NCBI GenBank assembly: GCA_021797795.1
Contig: JAJZZB010000003.1
Coordinates: 13,659-77,658, forward strand
Source of the DNA: Actinomycetes bacterium
GTDB lineage: Bacteria; Actinomycetota; Acidimicrobiia; Acidimicrobiales; Bog-793
Direction: 5' to 3'
DNA length: 64,000 bases
Shown: positions 17,664 through 26,573 of the stretch, piece by piece
How positions within the stretch are numbered: position 1 is the stretch's first letter
How the letters are laid out: every line of letters begins with the position of its first letter
Made by a program: the position numbers and the translations under genes
Notes under the pieces: generated by a model
Seen by the model: the letters and a program-made list of their open reading frames with translations, nothing else
Told to the model about the DNA's origin: nothing
Database searches by the model: none

Positions 17664-19103
17664 CGCTCCCACCGTACGCGCGCCAGCGGGTGCGGCGTTC
17701 CAACATCGGCGCGTCGATCGCGCTACGCAGCCAGACGCCTGCCGGCGCCGGCCCTTCGCCTCCTGTGCCGGTGCCGTCGCCCCGTGACGGGAGGACGCCG
17801 TGTGCGTCCCCCGCGTGCTCTCGTCGCGAGCGGGCGTGCCGGCCCGTCACGACCGTGCCCAGCGTCGTCTTGGCTCTGGCGGCCGCTCCTCGACGCCTCC
17901 ACCGTCGTCCGGCAGACGGCTGCCCGCTCTCGACAGGACGTCGTGCTCAGCGTGACGGGCCGGCTCGTCGGCCGGCAGCCTCGGCAGCAGCCGTCGTCCT
18001 CTCCGGGGTCTCGTTCGGGGCCCAGGCGCCGGTCCGGTCCTCTGCTGCGGCTCGGTCGTGCGCGTCCTTCTCTGATGACCTGCGCAACCAGCTGCTCGGC
18101 GGGAGTGTCCACCCGCTCGACCGGCCCGGCTGACCGCGTCCCTCGCAGGCACGTCCGTGAGCAGATGCGGCCCGAAGAGAGGCCAGGACCTCCTCGCAGC
18201 GAGCTCGCTGAACCAGCCGGAGGGACAGCCGAGGCTGACGCCTTCGCCGCGCAGAGGCACCGGCTGACCCGCGCAGAGGGGGGCGGCGCGGACAGCGAGG
18301 TGGTCCTTCGCCGTCTCCAGCGTGAACGGCCTCTGCTGGTCGAGTCCGACCGCCCAGCTGGTCACCCTCGGCGTCACCGATCCGTCGCAGCTCCCAGACC
18401 CCGCTCGGAGCCGACGCGGTCATATCGGTCGGTCCGTCTAGATGGTGGCGGCCTCCTGCCGGGAGAGGTCCACCCCCGAGGCGGGCTCGAACCGGACGAC
18501 CGGTGGGGGGCGCTCGAGAGCGAGAAGTGCTCGCCCGAGGGGTCGATCCCGAGCGGTCCCGAGCGATGGGAGAGCGACCAGCCCGGGGTGCCGCCCAGGA
18601 AGAGGAAGGGCACGGCATCGATGCAGTCGCTCGCCGCACCTGCACGTTCGGCAAGAGCGCGATCCGGGGCCTCCGCGTCAGCGGCCGCCCCGGAGACCGG
18701 TGTCGTCGCGCCGAAGCTCGGGCACGGCCGGCACTGCGGTGCTCCGCCGGGAGGAGGTGGGATCTCCCGCTCCGAACAGTCTCATGCTCTTCCTGTGAAG
18801 AGGCCGAGCCCCGGCTCGGGCCGTTCGAGCCGTCCGGGAGCCGAGCGAGGACAGAGCGGGAGCATCCAGCGCGAGCCGACCGATCTGGTCGGTCGAGCCC
18901 GGCGCGGCCGCCGGCGGCCGCCCGGGAGGAGAGTGGGGACGCTCCGCTGCCGGCCGCAAGGCGCTGTGGTGCGCCCCCGTCACGAGGGCCCGCACGGGCG
19001 TACCATGCACCCGCGGCGCCGGGGCGGCGGCGCGTCCAGCGATGACCCCGGGCCCTCCTCGCCGTCATGTCTCCCGGAAAGCCACTTGAGCAAGGAGCAC
19101 CAG

Positions 19104-19877
19104 ATGACCAGCCGAGACACGGCTCCGGCCGGAGCGCCCTGTTGGGCCGACCTGTGGACGACCGACGTCGAGGGCAGCCGCCGCTTCTACAGCCAGCTGT
19201 TCGGCTGGGAGGCACTCGAGCCCTCGCCTGGATTCGGTGGGTACTGGATGTTCGACCGTGGCGGTGCACCGACAGCAGGCGGCATGGGCTCGATGGGCGA
19301 CATGACGGCGGACAACACCTGGAAGCCGTACTTCTGCACGCGCGACATCGAGGCGTCGCTCGGCGCCGCCGAGCGGCACGGCGCCACCATCCACGCAGGC
19401 GCCACGCCGGTCGCCGAGCTCGGTGTCCAGGCCGTGCTGAGCGACCCGGCCGGGGCCGTCTTCGGGCTGTGGCAGCCGGGCACGTTCGAGGGCTTCGGCG
19501 TCGTCGGAGAGCTCGCCGCCCCCAGCTGGTTCGAGCTGCACACGTCCCAGCACGCGAGGGAGGTCGCCTTCTACCGCGATCTGTTCGGCTACGAGATCGA
19601 GGCGGCGGGCGACACCGACGACTTCCGCTACTCCACCTTCCGCACTCCCGGGTCCGGCGAGGAGCTCGGAGGGATCATGGACTCGAGCCGCTGGCTGCAG
19701 CCGGGCGGGGACCACTGGGACATCTACTGGCAGGTCGAGGACGCCGCCTCGACCGCTGAGAAGGTGAAGGAGCTAGGCGGGAGCGTCGTGCAGGGTCCCG
19801 ACCACACGCCGTACGGCGTGCTCGTGCTCTGCGCCGACCAGGCGGGGGCGCTGTTCAAGCTGCGCGCGCTCGCCTGA
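19104..19877 (+). CDS. Two-domain VOC/glyoxalase family protein (CFP32/Rv0577-like)
   Basis: GAPCWADLWTTDVEGSRRFYSQLFGW, DPAGAVFGLWQ, SWFELHT..AFYRDLFG; AAGGAG RBS. Confidence 0.88.
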   Translation: MTSRDTAPAGAPCWADLWTTDVEGSRRFYSQLFGWEALEPSPGFGGYWMFDRGGAPTAGGMGSMGDMTADNTWKPYFCTRDIEASLGAAERHGATIHAGATPVAELGVQAVLSDPAGAVFGLWQPGTFEGFGVVGELAAPSWFELHTSQHAREVAFYRDLFGYEIEAAGDTDDFRYSTFRTPGSGEELGGIMDSSRWLQPGGDHWDIYWQVEDAASTAEKVKELGGSVVQGPDHTPYGVLVLCADQAGALFKLRALA

Positions 19878-20526: not shown

Positions 20527-22542
20527 TCAGGAGCTCTGCAGCGAGAAGCGGATGAGGGTGATCGAGTGGGCGGGAAAGGTCATCTCGAGCAGGCCGTGCA
20601 GGTCCTGCTCGTACCACGCGGTCGTGGTCACCCTGTTCGGGTCGGCCGGGGTGTTGTAGCTGAGCGAGCTCTGTCCGTCGAGCAGCTCGCCCGTCACCAC
20701 GGGGCCAGCCGGCAGGCCCTTCAGCGACACGCTCGAAGTGACCGAGGCGGACGGGTTGCGGTTGACGACGAGGGCGTAGGCCCAGCCGCCCTTCACTGCG
20801 GCCGTCACGCTCAGGTCACCCGTGCTGAGGGTGCTCGAGCTGGCGAGCACGGGGTTGCCTGCCACCGTCGCGGCGAGCGCCGTGGCGCCGGCAAACGGGG
20901 CGAAGAGCTCGAGGTAGCTCCCCGTCGGTTCCACCACCGTCTGCGGACCCGGGGTCACGACGGCTCCCGTCGTGGCAAAGGGCGCGGCGCCGGGCAGCCC
21001 GCCGCCGATGGCGTCCGGAGCCGGGAGCTCTGCAGACAGGAGCTGCCGGTCGGCCACGGGGAGGCCGAGCTCGATCCAGTTCTGGAGCTGGCTCGCGTTG
21101 ACGAGGGCCTCGTCGAGTGAGTCGAGGAAGTAGGGGTACTGATTCGGGTTCGGGCCGGCGTTGACGCCCGTCCCGTACTCGGTCACCACGACTGGGACCC
21201 GCCGTCCGGTCGCCTCGAAGAGCTGCCGTTGCAGCGACGAGACCGACGCCTCCTCATGGGCGGGGACGAGCATGACCCGGGTCTCGTAGGCCGAGATCGT
21301 GGCGGTCTTCAGCGGGTAGACGTACAGGTGGTCCTGCAGACAGTCGTAGGGCACCGAGGAGCCCATCGCCTCGATGAAAGCCCACGTCGGGTCGGTCGCG
21401 CAGACGTGGATGTTCGGGTTCGCCCGCTTCATCGCACGGTAGAAGCCCACGAATCCGGCGTGCGGCCCGGAGACGTAGGTCGCGGTCAGGACGGTGCCCC
21501 TCGGGGGGATCGCCCCGTGCACCCCGTTGCCGAAGGTCGCCTCGCCGGTCGAGTGGTTGAAGGCGTAGACCCGCGCCCACGGCCCGGCGGTGGCGAGCGA
21601 CGAGACCTGCGTCCAGGGGTGCCCACCCACGAAGACGGAGTTCGACTGGGGGACCACAGGCGGCTCGGCGACGTAGAAGTGCTGGCCTCGCCTCCCTGTC
21701 GAGAGCGCCGCCGCCGCCGTCCGGTTGGCGTAGCGGACGAGACGTTGGCCGGTGAACAGGGTGGAGCCGCCGTAGATGTACTCACAGGTGGCGACCGTCT
21801 TGCAGGCGCCCGGCGGCCCACCGACCTTCACCGCCTGCCCGAGGCGCCATCCGCTGCGGGCATACTCCTCGTTGCCGACCTCGAACCAGGGCACGTTGTA
21901 GGGCGATCGGCGGCCGTAGCCGACGCGGAGGTCGGCGAAGTAGCTCGAGCCCGGCTGTCCGGTGAGGTACTTGACGAAGTTGGCGGCCTGCGTGGCGGTA
22001 CCGGTGTCGAAGTTGACCGTGACGACTCCCACGGCGCCCGTCCGGCCGAGCAGCGCCCCGAACTCGTCCGGGCCGACGCCCGAGCCGCTCGGACCCGAAT
22101 CGGGGCCGATGGCGTTCGGGGTCCGGAGCGACTGCGGCCCGACGGCCCGCCGCCACTGGTAGGTCTGGGCGGCGGCCCCGCCGGGGAACCGGAGCGAGCC
22201 GATGTAGACCTCAGAGCCGAGCTGCTGCAGGAAGGAGGGGTAGAAGCTCGAGGTCGTCGGGTCGAAGCTCCCCATCCCGTTGTCGAGAGCGAGGAAGTCG
22301 CTGCCGAGCACGGCCCGGCGCACGGTGCCGAGGTGCTGGCGGCCGTCGATCACGATCGAGGTCGAGCTCGAGACGGCCACGTCGTGGCGGAGAGAGGACG
22401 AGCCGACGGGGGACTCCCGGGTGCCGGCGTGCGCCGCCAGGGCCGACGTCGAGGTGAGCACCAGGGCGGCAACGAGCAACGACGCAGCGGTCAGCGCTTC
22501 CCGCCGATGCCCGGACCGCTGCCGTGTCTGCCCCGTCGCCAA
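20527..22542 (-). CDS. Secreted clan GH-A glycoside hydrolase, GH51 alpha-L-arabinofuranosidase-like, with an internal baseplate-like insertion
   Basis: Signal peptide (RREALTAASLLVAALVLTSTSALA), LRFPGG, YQWRRAVGP, GPDEF, FEVGNEE (acid/base), VTEYG (nucleophile), C-terminal beta-sandwich (ALVVNRNP...FPAHSITLI); TTG start uncertain. Confidence 0.75.
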   Translation of the reverse strand: MATGQTRQRSGHRREALTAASLLVAALVLTSTSALAAHAGTRESPVGSSSLRHDVAVSSSTSIVIDGRQHLGTVRRAVLGSDFLALDNGMGSFDPTTSSFYPSFLQQLGSEVYIGSLRFPGGAAAQTYQWRRAVGPQSLRTPNAIGPDSGPSGSGVGPDEFGALLGRTGAVGVVTVNFDTGTATQAANFVKYLTGQPGSSYFADLRVGYGRRSPYNVPWFEVGNEEYARSGWRLGQAVKVGGPPGACKTVATCEYIYGGSTLFTGQRLVRYANRTAAAALSTGRRGQHFYVAEPPVVPQSNSVFVGGHPWTQVSSLATAGPWARVYAFNHSTGEATFGNGVHGAIPPRGTVLTATYVSGPHAGFVGFYRAMKRANPNIHVCATDPTWAFIEAMGSSVPYDCLQDHLYVYPLKTATISAYETRVMLVPAHEEASVSSLQRQLFEATGRRVPVVVTEYGTGVNAGPNPNQYPYFLDSLDEALVNASQLQNWIELGLPVADRQLLSAELPAPDAIGGGLPGAAPFATTGAVVTPGPQTVVEPTGSYLELFAPFAGATALAATVAGNPVLASSSTLSTGDLSVTAAVKGGWAYALVVNRNPSASVTSSVSLKGLPAGPVVTGELLDGQSSLSYNTPADPNRVTTTAWYEQDLHGLLEMTFPAHSITLIRFSLQSS

Positions 22543-22553
22543 CTCGAGTGATC

Positions 22554-23885
22554 CTACATGGCGGCTCTCTGGCGCAGCGCCTCTCCCCCGTCGACGGTCT
22601 CCCGCACCGCTCGGCGCAGAGGCGGCGCGATGGCGACGGCCAGCGCGAGCGCCAGCGCGCCGGCCGCCGTGGTCCAGGCGAGCCCGATGCTGTCGGCGAC
22701 CGGTCCCTGGACGAGGGCACCGATCGGGTAGGCGACACCGAGCGCCATGAGGTAGAGGGCGAGGACCCTCCCGCGGTAGGCCTGCGGCGCTCGCAGCTGG
22801 ACGACCGTCTGGAGCCCCGACAGCACGCCGAGGTAGACGAGCCCCACCAGGAACAAGGCGACCACCGCGACCACAAGGGAGGCCGAGAGGCCGTAGGCGA
22901 CGAGCACGAATGGCAGCAGGCCCAGGCTGGCGGCGAGCACCCGACCGCGGCCGAAGTGGGCGGCGAGGTAGGGGATGAGGAGGGCGCCCACCACCGCGCC
23001 GACGCCCTGGGCGGTGGTGAGCAGGGCGGTGCCGGTGGCGACGGCCCGGCTGCCGCCATGGGCGAGGTGGTCGGCCATCGCCGGCACGAGGGCGATGAAC
23101 GGAGAGGCGAAGAGCCCGACGGTGGCGATGAGCAGGATCGCCCCCTTGCAGGCCGGCTCGCCGCGGGCGGTCCTCGCCCCCAGTCTCACCGAGCGCCAGA
23201 CCGAGAGTCGCTCGCCCGCCGGCGGCGGAGCGAGGCGGACGAAGCCCAGAGCCAGCACCACCGCGAGGAACGAGACGGCGTTGGCCTCGAACGCGACGGG
23301 ATAGCCGAAGAGCGCCACCGCCGCCCCGGCGAGCGCCGGGCCGATGACACGGCCCAGGTTGAACTGGGCGGAGTTGAGCGAGACTGCGGCCAGGAAGTCG
23401 CCGCGCGGGACGAGGTCCGGCAGGATCGCCTGCTGGAACGGCCCGGTCAGCGCGCTCACGCAGCCTTGAACGAGCACGAGCAGGCTGAGGGTCCCCGGAG
23501 AGTCGTGCCGGCCCGCCACGAGGACCGCGATCGCGAGGGCGACCAGTGCCGCCACGAGGTTCCCGACGACGAGCACCGGCCGGCGGGCCAGCCGGTCCGC
23601 CAGCGCGCCGCCGACGGGTGAGAGCACGCCGATCGGTAAGAAGGCGCTCGCCGCCACGACGACCGCCCACAGAGCCTGGCCGGTGTGGGCGACGACGAGG
23701 GCCCCGACGGCCACCGACTGCATCCACGAGCCGACGGTGGAGACGAGCCCTCCGGACCACAACAGCGCGAAGGAGCGGTGCCGGAACGGTCGCAGGGAGA
23801 CGGCCAACCCGACACGGTGGCTCGCCACCGTCACGGGCGACGAGACGGCGGTCATCTCGTTCGGGATGTCAGAGAGGGCGTCCAC
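22554..23885 (-). CDS. MFS transporter (TGV/macrolide-efflux-like family)
   Basis: RHRSFALLWSGGLVSTVGSWMQ, GGALADRLARR, AVSLNSAQFNLGRVIGPALAG, YRGRVLAL; start uncertain. Confidence 0.9.
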   Translation of the reverse strand: MDALSDIPNEMTAVSSPVTVASHRVGLAVSLRPFRHRSFALLWSGGLVSTVGSWMQSVAVGALVVAHTGQALWAVVVAASAFLPIGVLSPVGGALADRLARRPVLVVGNLVAALVALAIAVLVAGRHDSPGTLSLLVLVQGCVSALTGPFQQAILPDLVPRGDFLAAVSLNSAQFNLGRVIGPALAGAAVALFGYPVAFEANAVSFLAVVLALGFVRLAPPPAGERLSVWRSVRLGARTARGEPACKGAILLIATVGLFASPFIALVPAMADHLAHGGSRAVATGTALLTTAQGVGAVVGALLIPYLAAHFGRGRVLAASLGLLPFVLVAYGLSASLVVAVVALFLVGLVYLGVLSGLQTVVQLRAPQAYRGRVLALYLMALGVAYPIGALVQGPVADSIGLAWTTAAGALALALAVAIAPPLRRAVRETVDGGEALRQRAAM

Positions 23886-24524
23886 GGTCGGACTGGCAGA
23901 CTACGCGCTCGGCGGGCCGGTCCCGGCTCCGGAGTCGGTTTCTCGCAACCTCGCTCCCTCACGGCGCGGTCGCCACCACGGCGCCTGACGCCGGGTCCGC
24001 GATCCACCTGCACGACGGCGACCGCGAGCCGGTCGGGTCAGCGATGGCGCAGATGGAGCCCCTCGAACAGCCGGTGGGCCGCCTCGCCGGTCCGAGCTCG
24101 CGGCCCTGCCGGCCGGCGCTCCGGTTGCATGCGGCCGGCAACGGTCACGGCGATCGCAGGCGTGACAGCGCGCGAAGCACTCGTGCCTCGTGACGGCGGT
24201 GACCGGTCGGTGCTGCCACCGCGTGCTCGCCTATTTCGCCCTCGTGCGGGACGAGCGCCCGCCCTTCCGCCACGACTGCGGTGGGCCACGACCCCGGCAG
24301 CCCACCGGAGGCCGGGGAGGAGCGGCTCGCTGCCCGAGGCCGCATCCATCCCACGCGACACCCGACGGCAGCGCCGCCGGGTGGCACCGCGGCCGAGCCC
24401 GAGGGACGCCGGTCGCCCCGCCGGCGAGCGGGAGGGGCCGGCGAACGGGCAAGAATCCCGTTGTGGGCGCGGACACGACGACCGGCGCGGGAGCGGTGGA
24501 CCCCGGAAGCGGACCGGGCCGGAG

Positions 24525-26573
24525 ATGACGAGCGGCACCGGACCGGCGGCGGCCGGCGGCATCGAGGCGGAGGGCCCGGCCCTCAGCCACCGGAGGGTCC
24601 TCGTCGTCATCGGCGGGCTCCTGCTCGGCATGCTGCTGGCGGCGCTCGACCAGACGATCGTGGCCACGGCGCTCCCGACGATCGCGGGCGACCTCCACGA
24701 CCTTCCGCACCTGTCCTGGGTCGTGACTGCGTACATCCTCGCCTCGACCGCCTCGACGCCGCTGTGGGGCAAGCTCGGCGACCAGTACGGGCGGAAGACC
24801 TTCTTCCAGGCCGCCATCGTGATCTTCCTCGTCGGCTCGGCGCTGTCCGGCCTGAGCGCGACGATGTTCGAGCTCATCGCCTTCCGCGCGCTCCAGGGGG
24901 TCGGCGGCGGCGGTCTCATGATCGGCGCCCAGGCGATCGTCGGCGACGTCGTCTCGCCCCGTGAACGCGGCCGCTACCAGGGCCTGTTCGGCGCCGTGTT
25001 CGGCGTGACGAGCGTGCTCGGGCCGCTCATCGGCGGCTTTTTCGTCACCAACCTCTCGTGGCGATGGGTCTTCTACATCAACCTGCCGCTCGGCGCGGTC
25101 GCCCTCGTGGTCACCGCCGCCGTGCTCCCTGGCAACCTCGCCCGGGTACGCCATGTGATCGACTACCTCGGCACGGCGCTCCTCGCCGGCGCCGCCACGA
25201 GCCTCGTGCTCCTCACCACCCTCGGGGGCACCACCTACCCGTGGGACTCGGCACCGATCTTCCTCCTCGGCGCCTGCGGCGTCGTCCTGCTCGTGGCCTT
25301 CGCGGCAGTGGAGCATCGGGTCGCCGAGCCGGTGCTCCCGCTGCGGCTCTTCTCCAACCGGATCTTCTCGACCACGAGCGCCATCGGCTTCATCGTCGGT
25401 TTCGCCATGTTCGGGGCCATCACCTACCTCCCCCAGTACATGCAGGTGGTGCGGGGGGCGAGTCCGACCGGGTCGGGCCTCCAGCTGCTCCCCCTCATGG
25501 CCGGCCTCCTGCTCACCTCGACGCTCTCGGGCCTGCTCATCACGAGGTGGGGCCGCTACAAGGTCTTCCCGGTCGTCGGGACGGCGGTCATGACCGTCGG
25601 CATGTACCTGCTCTCGCTCATGGACGCCACCACCTCGACGACCGAGAGCTCGCTCTACATGTTCGTGCTGGGTGTCGGCATCGGCGGCGTGATGCAGGTG
25701 CTCGTCATCGCCGTCCAGAACGCCGTCGGCTACGAGGACCTCGGGGTCGCGACCGCAGGCGCCACCTTCTTCCGCTCGATCGGTGGCTCGTTCGGCACGG
25801 CAGTGTTCGGCGCCATCTTCGCCAACACCCTCGCCGGCAACCTCCGCCACTACCTGACAGGCGTTCGCCTTCCCCCTGGCTTCAACAGCGCGGCCGGGGC
25901 GAGCCCGGCGGTTCTCGCCAACTTGCCTCCGGTGGTGCATGCCGGCTTCGTCGGGGCCTTCGCCGCCTCGCTGCATACGGTGTTCCTCGTCGCCGTTCCC
26001 GTCTCGGCCGTCTCGTTCCTGCTGACCCTGTGGCTGAAAGAGGTGCCGCTGCGCCAGACGAGCCGGGCGCCGAGCCCGGCGGACACACTCGCTCCCACCT
26101 CGATGCCGGCCGAACGCTCCTCGGTCGAGGAGATCGGACGGGCGCTCAGCGTGCTGATGGGACGAGAGACCGGCACCCGCGTCTACGGCCGCCTCTGCGA
26201 ACGGGCGGGGCTCAGCCTCGACGCCCGCTGCTGTTGGCTCCTCCTCCGCCTCGAGGACCACCCTGAGGAGGATCTCAGCGGTCTCGCGTCCAAGCTGCAC
26301 CTGTCGGCGAGCGAGCTCGCTCCGATCGTCGACGGGCTGGTCGACGGCGGTTACCTCGAGGGTGGTCCGGGCGGCGACCGGACGGCCCCGAGAGCCGGGC
26401 CGCTGCGGCTGACCGGCGAGGGGCGCCGCTCAGCCGACGCCCTCATCACTGCCCGGCGCGACGCCCTCTCCCAGCTCGTCGAGGAGTGGGGTCCGGACGA
26501 GCACGCCGACCTCGCCGCCCTGCTCACGCGCCTCGCCCACGAGCTCACGGAGGGCCGTGCTCCGAACGGCTGA
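24525..26573 (+). CDS. DHA2 (EmrB/QacA-type, 14-TM) MFS efflux transporter fused to a C-terminal MarR-like winged-helix domain
   Basis: LAALDQTIVATALPTI, WGKLGDQYGRK, WRWVFYINLPLG; tail CWLLLRL..LSGLASKLHL..IVDGLVDGGYL..LRLTGEGR. Confidence 0.9.
   Translation: MTSGTGPAAAGGIEAEGPALSHRRVLVVIGGLLLGMLLAALDQTIVATALPTIAGDLHDLPHLSWVVTAYILASTASTPLWGKLGDQYGRKTFFQAAIVIFLVGSALSGLSATMFELIAFRALQGVGGGGLMIGAQAIVGDVVSPRERGRYQGLFGAVFGVTSVLGPLIGGFFVTNLSWRWVFYINLPLGAVALVVTAAVLPGNLARVRHVIDYLGTALLAGAATSLVLLTTLGGTTYPWDSAPIFLLGACGVVLLVAFAAVEHRVAEPVLPLRLFSNRIFSTTSAIGFIVGFAMFGAITYLPQYMQVVRGASPTGSGLQLLPLMAGLLLTSTLSGLLITRWGRYKVFPVVGTAVMTVGMYLLSLMDATTSTTESSLYMFVLGVGIGGVMQVLVIAVQNAVGYEDLGVATAGATFFRSIGGSFGTAVFGAIFANTLAGNLRHYLTGVRLPPGFNSAAGASPAVLANLPPVVHAGFVGAFAASLHTVFLVAVPVSAVSFLLTLWLKEVPLRQTSRAPSPADTLAPTSMPAERSSVEEIGRALSVLMGRETGTRVYGRLCERAGLSLDARCCWLLLRLEDHPEEDLSGLASKLHLSASELAPIVDGLVDGGYLEGGPGGDRTAPRAGPLRLTGEGRRSADALITARRDALSQLVEEWGPDEHADLAALLTRLAHELTEGRAPNG

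Follow-up and report, generated by a model that had tools for sequence, protein, structure and literature searches.

The window analysed here is the whole 64,000-nucleotide stretch of an Actinomycetes bacterium genome (Acidimicrobiia; Acidimicrobiales; Bog-793) that spans positions 13,659 to 77,658 of the forward strand of contig JAJZZB010000003.1 in GenBank assembly GCA_021797795.1; coordinates below count from its first letter. On the minus strand of this window, a gene at 20527..22542 encodes a 671-residue protein, hereafter P0001, whose sequence and predicted fold mark it as a divergent, probably secreted GH51-like glycosidase. Inserted into its catalytic barrel, in the loop leading out of the acid/base strand, is a β-rich module that, judging from profile and model comparisons, is almost certainly homologous to the baseplate-wedge proteins of phage tails and contractile injection systems (CIS) and was captured by the enzyme as a domain. 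The gene and its parts, all on the minus strand, are as follows.

20527..22542, minus strand: whole gene of the putatively secreted GH51-like glycosidase P0001, 671 residues, TTG start, stop codon included (open reading frame, sequence and fold matches)
22378..22542, minus strand: predicted N-terminal signal peptide and linker, residues 1–55 (read from the sequence; AlphaFold2 (AF2) predicted local distance difference test (pLDDT) below 50)
21865..21876, minus strand: GNEE motif at the end of barrel strand β4, with Asn224-Glu225 as the predicted acid/base (aligned to the GNE of GH51 structures)
21457..21837, minus strand: whole insertion in the β4–α4 loop, residues 236–362, about 127 residues, absent from canonical GH51 enzymes (spacing and secondary structure of the model)
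21472..21708, minus strand: the part of the insertion detectable by sequence as a baseplate-wedge β-module of the gp6/Afp11/Cis11 type, residues 279–357 (TIGR02243, 9GTP, hhalign, Foldseek)
21172..21186, minus strand: VTEYG motif with the predicted nucleophile Glu455 on strand β7 (counterpart in the 6D25 alignment: nucleophile motif DEW, in VDEWG)
20530..20982, minus strand: C-terminal β-sandwich of GH51 type, residues approximately 521–671 (Pfam PF06964, E 4.3e-6; PDB 6d25 residues 381–518; Foldseek)

A probably secreted GH51-like glycosidase

The stop codon of the gene occupies 20527–20529. Its reading frame stays open on the minus strand from 23760, and the upstream part overlaps, in another frame, a major facilitator superfamily (MFS) transporter gene at 22554..23885. 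The sole start codon past the stop of that transporter gene is the TTG at 22542, which lies 9 nt after the stop, has an AGGA 10 nt upstream and gives the 671-residue product; it is the likely start of the glycosidase. A protein of 671 residues identical to this product is present in a public protein collection (P0002).

The N terminus of P0001 has an arginine-rich n-region with RR, a hydrophobic stretch (LTAASLLVAALVLTSTSALA) and an ALA/AH site. Homologues have comparable N termini and, in addition, extracellular modules such as PKD, NEW3, SLH, Big_4, LamG and a sialidase-like carbohydrate-binding module (CBM). Because of this signal-peptide-like N terminus and the extracellular modules of its relatives, the glycosidase is probably secreted.

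Searched as a single sequence against the PDB, the protein matches GH51 α-L-arabinofuranosidases (6D25, E 3.9e-18; 3UG3, 4ATW and 3S2C, about 2e-15), and a profile of 30 homologues matches 3ug3, 3s2c and 6d25 with E values of 1e-34 to 6e-37, the best being 3ug3 (6e-37). The HMMER alignment to GH51 covers only the β1–β4 part and the C-terminal sandwich, the central barrel being too divergent, and the score against the NCBIfam model ArfA is 60.9 bits against a cut-off of 625. An AF2 model of the full chain, made with 113 homologues, has a pLDDT of 90.2 and a predicted template-modelling score (pTM) of 0.88, with only residues 1–55 disordered. In a Foldseek search of the PDB with this model, the top 45 matches are GH51 enzymes (E down to 4.6e-31, TMt 0.75–0.82, identity 13–18%), followed by GH79 glucuronidases. 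The combination of a (β/α)8 barrel and a C-terminal β-sandwich that defines GH51 is found in the AF2 model and, for the sandwich, in the PF06964 match. The first-pass annotation, made from the letters of the window alone, had called the enzyme part GH51-like, and both the PDB sequence matches and the Foldseek search bear this out.

All 113 aligned homologues share R118, N224, E225, W232, H405, Y407 and E455. Among these are the arginine, the Asn-Glu pair and the nucleophile glutamate of the −1 subsite of arabinofuranosidases, and we take His405-x-Tyr407 to be the canonical GH51 His-x-Tyr by its likeness to that motif and not by alignment. The second canonical asparagine of the −1 subsite, after PGG at position 123, is replaced by alanine in P0001 and by isoleucine or threonine in most of the family. 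On account of the GH51 sequence and fold matches, the invariant catalytic residues and this changed asparagine, the protein is best described as a divergent GH51-like retaining glycosidase of clan GH-A type; sources annotate the proteins of this family simply as α-N/L-arabinofuranosidase.

Two cysteine pairs, C247/C253 and C381/C401, are widely conserved in the family, and among the homologues of Acidimicrobiia type (for example P0092–P0121) one subclade has an extra Cys-Cys loop of 11 residues (SxVCCTLDGP) after the conserved N143, at alignment columns 230–245. The loop and the two pairs together suggest several disulfides in the family, which would fit an extracellular enzyme.

The insertion in the β4–α4 loop

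From the acid/base E225 to the nucleophile E455, P0001 has 230 residues, as opposed to 122 in XacAbf51 (6D25). In the model, the strand with the GNEE motif (219–222) leads into the insertion, and the barrel resumes at helix α4 (363–374). The intervening segment is modelled as a separate, mainly β unit with strands at 236–240, 259–267, 288–290, 302–305, 311–313, 325–329, 334–337 and 351–361. Its pLDDT is 96–98 within the full model, and residues 228–366 modelled alone reach 92.5. The C247/C253 pair lies in this unit and is kept in at least 95% of the 113 homologues, two divergent members (G106 and G120) being without it.

The first-pass annotation had placed an insert of about 80 residues between GNEE and VTEYG. 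An insert is indeed there, but it is larger than that, about 127 residues (236–362), of which approximately 117 columns align to Cis11. The coordinates given at that stage are exact: the segment from STGRRGQ to TATYVSG (21702..21466), GNEE (21876..21865) and VTEYG (21186..21172) lie on the minus strand in one open reading frame. The module at 21472..21708 covers the 21466–21702 segment except for its last six bases, 21466–21471, which encode Ser358-Gly359.

Homology of the module to baseplate-wedge proteins

In NCBIfam, the 79-residue stretch detectable by sequence matches TIGR02243 (‘putative baseplate assembly protein’, 659 positions) over positions 358–447 with an E value of 5e-9; its match to PHROG 219 (‘baseplate wedge subunit’) has an E value of 0.017. 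The same TIGR02243 match was obtained with the inserts of all 30 homologues tested (38–87% identity), the best at E 6e-16. Profiles are needed to see the relationship: the insert alone has no Pfam match even at E values up to 10, and phmmer with a single insert against the PDB gave noise and a weak match to BplA of phage P1. With a profile of the insert, the PDB yields residues 301–394 of the Streptomyces coelicolor CIS protein Cis11 (9GTP, E 1.3e-7) and phage P1 BplA (E 0.0018). Aligned by hhalign to eight full-length actinobacterial TIGR02243 (Cis11-like) proteins, the insert reaches a probability of 98.2%, an E value of 5.4e-14 and 34% identity over 76 columns, and the template residues 294–394 lie directly N-terminal of the Pfam Baseplate_J match in those proteins.

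Structural comparison of the insert model gives the same picture. The top Foldseek match in the PDB is again Cis11 (9GTP; E 1.1e-5, prob 1.0) over 116–117 columns, with a root-mean-square deviation (rmsd) of 1.7–2.9 Å and an identity of 23–24%, and the next matches are the phage P1 baseplate (BplA), the Klebsiella phage KP1 baseplate and T4 gp6 (5IV5_B, prob 0.96). In a viral structure library, all 17 matches with E below 1e-3 are baseplate wedge or J proteins or unnamed proteins; the best has an E value of 1.4e-8 and an rmsd of 2.3 Å over 106 columns, and identities among the matches go up to 32%.

The consensus of 49 baseplate-J copies with 119 glycosidase inserts reads S.G.p.Q.f..pv...v...W..v..f..sgp.d..ld...g.i.FGdG..G.iPp.g..i...Y, which is nearly identical to the motif that the first-pass annotation had cited when it likened the insert to the wedge proteins of the TIGR02243/Afp11/gp6 group. 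That likeness is upheld by TIGR02243, PHROG 219, hhalign and Foldseek, the last with both 9GTP and T4 gp6. Two outcomes named at the time as fatal to the idea were looked for, the lack of any match to baseplate proteins and a match to a known CBM, and neither was found, the best CBM candidate being CBM35 at E 0.68.

The likeness is confined to the module. The whole protein scores 33.5 bits against TIGR02243, whose cut-off is 155.8, and only positions 354–453 of the 659 are matched; P0001 has no Pfam Baseplate_J match, and our own hidden Markov models (HMMs) of the N- and C-terminal parts of the baseplate proteins miss the glycosidase members, so the full baseplate-wedge architecture is absent.

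The module in other proteins and its origin

Many of the Baseplate_J proteins matched by the insert profile carry the module in tandem, in two to five copies between the N-terminal region and the Baseplate_J core (five in P0122 and P0123, three in P0126 and P0132). Further copies occur in a Tail_P2_I (gpI-like) protein, P0190, and in P0257, which is encoded on a phage-like contig of 98 kb. Outside such settings, two copies are found in P0247 (locus L072, 7001–10660), a 1,219-residue protein sorted by the type IX secretion system (T9SS), whose gene neighbours ftsA and ftsZ on a bacterial chromosome. Here the module has been put to cellular use a second time, independently. The profile built from glycosidase inserts recognizes the module in the tandem Baseplate_J proteins and in P0247 at E values of 1e-26 to 1e-59. 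Because it occurs both as tandem copies in Baseplate_J proteins and in other protein types, the module is a mobile, duplicable and transferable unit.

One further protein that appeared to carry the module, P0236, with 12 ‘stretches’, was dismissed as spurious, being a cadherin-repeat protein matched on an FGDG-like segment only. Baseplate-J proteins with a glycosidase beside the module, as a fusion intermediate would have it, were looked for, but the long ones examined carry WD40 propellers in its stead. In P0249, P0230 and P0241, which are Baseplate-J-like proteins of 1,050–1,450 residues, a WD40 β-propeller stands between the β-modules and the C-terminal core.

In a tree of 176 module copies, the glycosidase inserts cluster without being strictly monophyletic: two changes suffice to explain the glycosidase and baseplate labels, and shuffled labels never need so few. 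The 86 columns available are too few to establish a single capture or the donor lineage. Since the module is near-universal in the wedge proteins of phages and CIS and the enzyme family is narrow, we infer that transfer went from baseplate to enzyme.

Distribution and conservation of the fusion

Homology searches found 141 relatives of P0001 at 38–87% identity. The insert is kept in 113 of the 113 homologues that were aligned, each with at least 69 of the 87 module positions. Among species-representative genomes, the family occupies 53 distinct loci, all in metagenome-assembled genomes (MAGs) of Actinomycetota (Acidimicrobiia, Solirubrobacterales/Conexibacter and some Actinomycetes), with up to four paralogues per genome. 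It is sparse: 5 of 401 genomes in an even sample of Actinomycetota have it, and none of about 20 genomes of the same order.

Searched against 1.84 billion representative sequences, the insert profile gave 4,943 matches at E values up to 1e-3 and 490 at up to 1e-10. When 140 newly listed top representatives (50% identity level) were classed with our own HMMs, 108 proved to be insert-bearing glycosidases, with the insert at about residues 250–350, along with 23 Baseplate_J proteins and 9 others. Cultured carriers are known from Paenibacillus. In the P. radicis protein (WP_258214246.1, P0125), the complete catalytic module is present twice, both times with the insert, and is joined by three SLH domains; in that of P. 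pasadenensis (WP_251563200.1, P0228), the same loop carries the module twice in tandem, and the protein also has LamG. The fusion is thus conserved across more than 100 enzyme lineages in two phyla and fixed in all members known so far.

The module has a mean pairwise identity of 55.7%, as against 57.4% and 55.0% in the two halves of the barrel and 44.2% in the C-terminal sandwich; by this measure, purifying selection on the module is as strong as on the barrel and stronger than on the sandwich. Within the insert, Trp310, Tyr326, Phe337 and Tyr356 are conserved. The junction between module and barrel has invariant residues specific to the glycosidases, Y356-x-S-G-P-H361, and both the SGPH and His342 are absent from baseplate copies.

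Genomic context

The host assembly (3.8 Mb in 324 contigs, 94% complete) holds no other TIGR02243 match and no match to Phage_sheath_1, Baseplate_J or GPW_gp25, the tube and spike families not having been searched; positive controls fired in Escherichia coli and other genomes. The earlier remark that no other tail gene is present therefore holds for the 94%-complete assembly and not for the window alone, as far as these four models reach. As these four models matched no CIS or prophage in the assembly, recent capture of the module from a resident one is rejected.

The genes adjoining the glycosidase are two MFS transporters and a glyoxalase-family gene:

22554..23885, minus strand: MFS_3 transporter gene, upstream on the same strand (Pfam MFS_3, E 7.8e-60)
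24500–26573, plus strand: divergent DHA2-type MFS transporter, within an open reading frame at 23685..26573 (MFS_1, E 5e-53)
19100–19877, plus strand: two-domain gene of the glyoxalase/bleomycin-resistance family, within a 697-residue open reading frame at 17784..19877

The MFS_3 gene and the glycosidase gene are probably co-transcribed, because the stop of the former lies 9 nt before the start of the latter. The DHA2-type transporter seems to have a C-terminal cytoplasmic extension of about 150 residues with a weak match to a MarR-type winged helix (PF01047, E 0.002, below the cut-off) and may be a transporter–regulator fusion. Most of the 697-residue frame is a high-GC artefact; the real-looking part is the last 260 or so residues, from MTSRDTAPAG onwards.

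Over 54 loci of the family, all-against-all BLAST clustering found no conserved gene neighbours, and the MFS_3 gene is not a conserved partner. Because the best non-self neighbour cluster (a two-component system, an ABC exporter, Suf genes) occurs in at most 10 of the 54 loci, there is no operon logic to be read from the surroundings. In one Actinomycetota MAG (locus L056, 3553–7663), two GH28 genes and the mandelate-racemase-like, dihydrodipicolinate synthase (DHDPS)-like and short-chain dehydrogenase/reductase (SDR) genes of uronate catabolism stand immediately upstream of a homologue. This context weakly hints at pectin side chains or uronate and is the only such hint among the loci examined; one other homologue examined sits among unrelated genes.

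Possible roles of the module

In clan GH-A barrels, the β-to-α loops build the catalytic and substrate-binding face, and the loop after β4 borders the leaving-group side. We propose that an ancestor of the enzyme family gained a self-contained β-module, roughly 115 residues long, from some baseplate-wedge protein in the gp6/gpJ/Afp11/Cis11 lineage, the donor system being presumably a contractile tail or a tail-like injection system, and that this module was spliced into the loop leaving strand β4, just after the Asn-Glu acid/base and the conserved Trp232. It would be held rigidly on the barrel, and the high-confidence modelling, which carries no inter-domain error estimate, is consistent with such rigidity. 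Fixed in this position, the module would form a wall or platform by which the aglycone (+) subsites are lengthened or moulded, and would set which polysaccharide the enzyme docks on; it would be neither a tethered CBM nor a component of a tail machine. Candidate contact residues are Tyr356 and Ser358-Gly359-Pro360-His361 at the base of the module, His342, Tyr326 and Trp310. Such a rigid structure, flanking the active site on its aglycone side, is suggested by the place of the insert in the loop after the acid/base strand, by the part that β-to-α loops play in forming the catalytic face and by the strong purifying selection on the module, and we hold it to be the likeliest of the roles considered, if one still short of probable.

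Several points weigh against this account. The role as a wall or platform is argued from the way in which clan GH-A barrels are generally built. In baseplates, the module takes part in protein–protein contacts, which favours oligomerization. The insert has no CBM match, the best in Foldseek being CBM35 (4QB2, E 0.68, prob 0.09), and some members carry separate binding modules (a sialidase-like CBM, LamG), so that binding may take place elsewhere. As to origin, the 86-column tree is poorly resolved, with an SH-aLRT value of 78 for the main glycosidase clade, and the direction of transfer is read from the breadth of distribution.

The module could instead be an oligomerization or docking device that keeps its ancestral protein–protein function, joining the enzyme into dimers, trimers or hexamers or docking it to a surface protein with no substrate contact. 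Each CIS wedge contains two Cis11 and one Cis12, and Cis11, peripheral and surface-exposed, is held by contacts with the second Cis11 and with Cis12 (PMC12237407); wedge proteins also give docking sites to neighbours and fibres (PMC9942802). Contacts with other proteins hold wedge subunits of the Cis11/gp6 type in place (PMC12237407). Canonical GH51 enzymes crystallize as oligomers, with 6 to 18 chains per entry, and the lack of a CBM-like match of the insert points the same way. The family members, however, are modular extracellular proteins with PKD, SLH, Big_4, LamG and CBM domains, one of them (P0125) with two catalytic modules in a single chain, and enzymes of this build are seldom obligate homo-oligomers. 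The module, moreover, is inserted at the catalytic face of the barrel and not at its sides, and no partner gene is conserved beside the glycosidase at the 54 loci. We consider this explanation somewhat unlikely.

Another possibility is that the module belongs to a new family of CBMs, an autonomous binder that merely happens to be placed in a barrel loop. It is a small β-domain that recurs two to five times in tandem in baseplate-J proteins and also occurs in a T9SS-secreted protein and in phage-like structural proteins, as adhesion or binding modules typically do, and the conserved Trp310, Tyr326, Phe337 and Tyr356 could serve such a purpose. These aromatics are common to the baseplate copies, however, and may be mere core residues; there is no fold or profile likeness to any CBM family, the nearest being the CBM35 match already given and Pfam being silent; and the confidence with which module and barrel are modelled jointly fits an integral structural element better. 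An autonomous CBM therefore strikes us as improbable. Still less credible is a near-neutral passenger that was tolerated in a surface loop and is retained since its removal would destabilize the fold, for although TIM-barrel loops tolerate insertions, the module has diverged no faster than the barrel and less than the C-terminal sandwich, has never been lost in the 113 homologues or the 108 further representatives from two phyla, is duplicated in one member (P0228) and has glycosidase-specific invariants (SGPH, His342) that baseplate copies do not have.

A more speculative reading starts from the baseplates. The β-module of the baseplate wedge might itself be a glycan-recognition module that senses cell-surface polysaccharide at the periphery of the baseplates of contractile tails and injection systems, sometimes in arrays of up to five, and that has been exapted at least twice, at the active-site rim of the GH51-like enzymes and in the T9SS-secreted protein. 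We judge this to be quite unlikely as it stands. If it were true, the glycosidase family would be a new CAZy family or subfamily whose specificity is set by a phage-derived domain, and would give a handle on what wedges of the Cis11/gp6 type recognize; and if the module does contact glycan, this would point to what the corresponding module, often present in repeats, does in those wedges.

Whatever its role, the module in P0001 offers a clean and well-supported case in which an ordinary secreted enzyme appears to have exapted, within its catalytic domain, a baseplate module of phage tails and injection systems. It also defines an insert-bearing GH51-like branch from Actinomycetota of soil and peat, of potential interest for the degradation of biomass or cell-wall glycans, and the cultured Paenibacillus carriers make the insert-bearing glycosidase directly testable.

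Comparison with known systems

Full-text literature searches found no description of a baseplate module within a GH51 enzyme or arabinofuranosidase, in line with the statement in the first-pass annotation that no description of the architecture was known. With Cis11 (9GTP; Casu et al. 2025, PMC12237407), Afp11/Pvc11, T4 gp6, P2 gpJ and P1 BplA, the glycosidase has in common the motif S-G-x-x-G-Q ... W ... FGDG..G..PP.G ... Y. Unlike Cis11 and these relatives, it has neither a helical N-terminal part nor a Baseplate_J core at the C terminus, and where the baseplate proteins continue with Y-x-x-GGG-x-x-GN, the glycosidase has Y-x-SGPH. The tandem Baseplate_J proteins and P0247 contain the same module, but between structural-protein domains or in a long secreted protein, and not in a catalytic barrel.

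On the enzyme side, P0001 has the same two-domain fold, a (β/α)8 barrel and a C-terminal jelly-roll, as the solved GH51 arabinofuranosidases (3UG3 from Thermotoga maritima, 3S2C from T. petrophila, 6D25, XacAbf51, from Xanthomonas, 2VRQ, TxAbf, from Thermobacillus and 1PZ3, AbfA, from Geobacillus). RxPGG, GNE, the nucleophile glutamate and, by likeness of motif, H-x-Y are common to both. The glycosidase differs from these enzymes in being, by its predicted signal peptide, secreted as opposed to cytoplasmic, and in the 108–127 extra residues of its β4–α4 loop, which are modelled as a separate domain.

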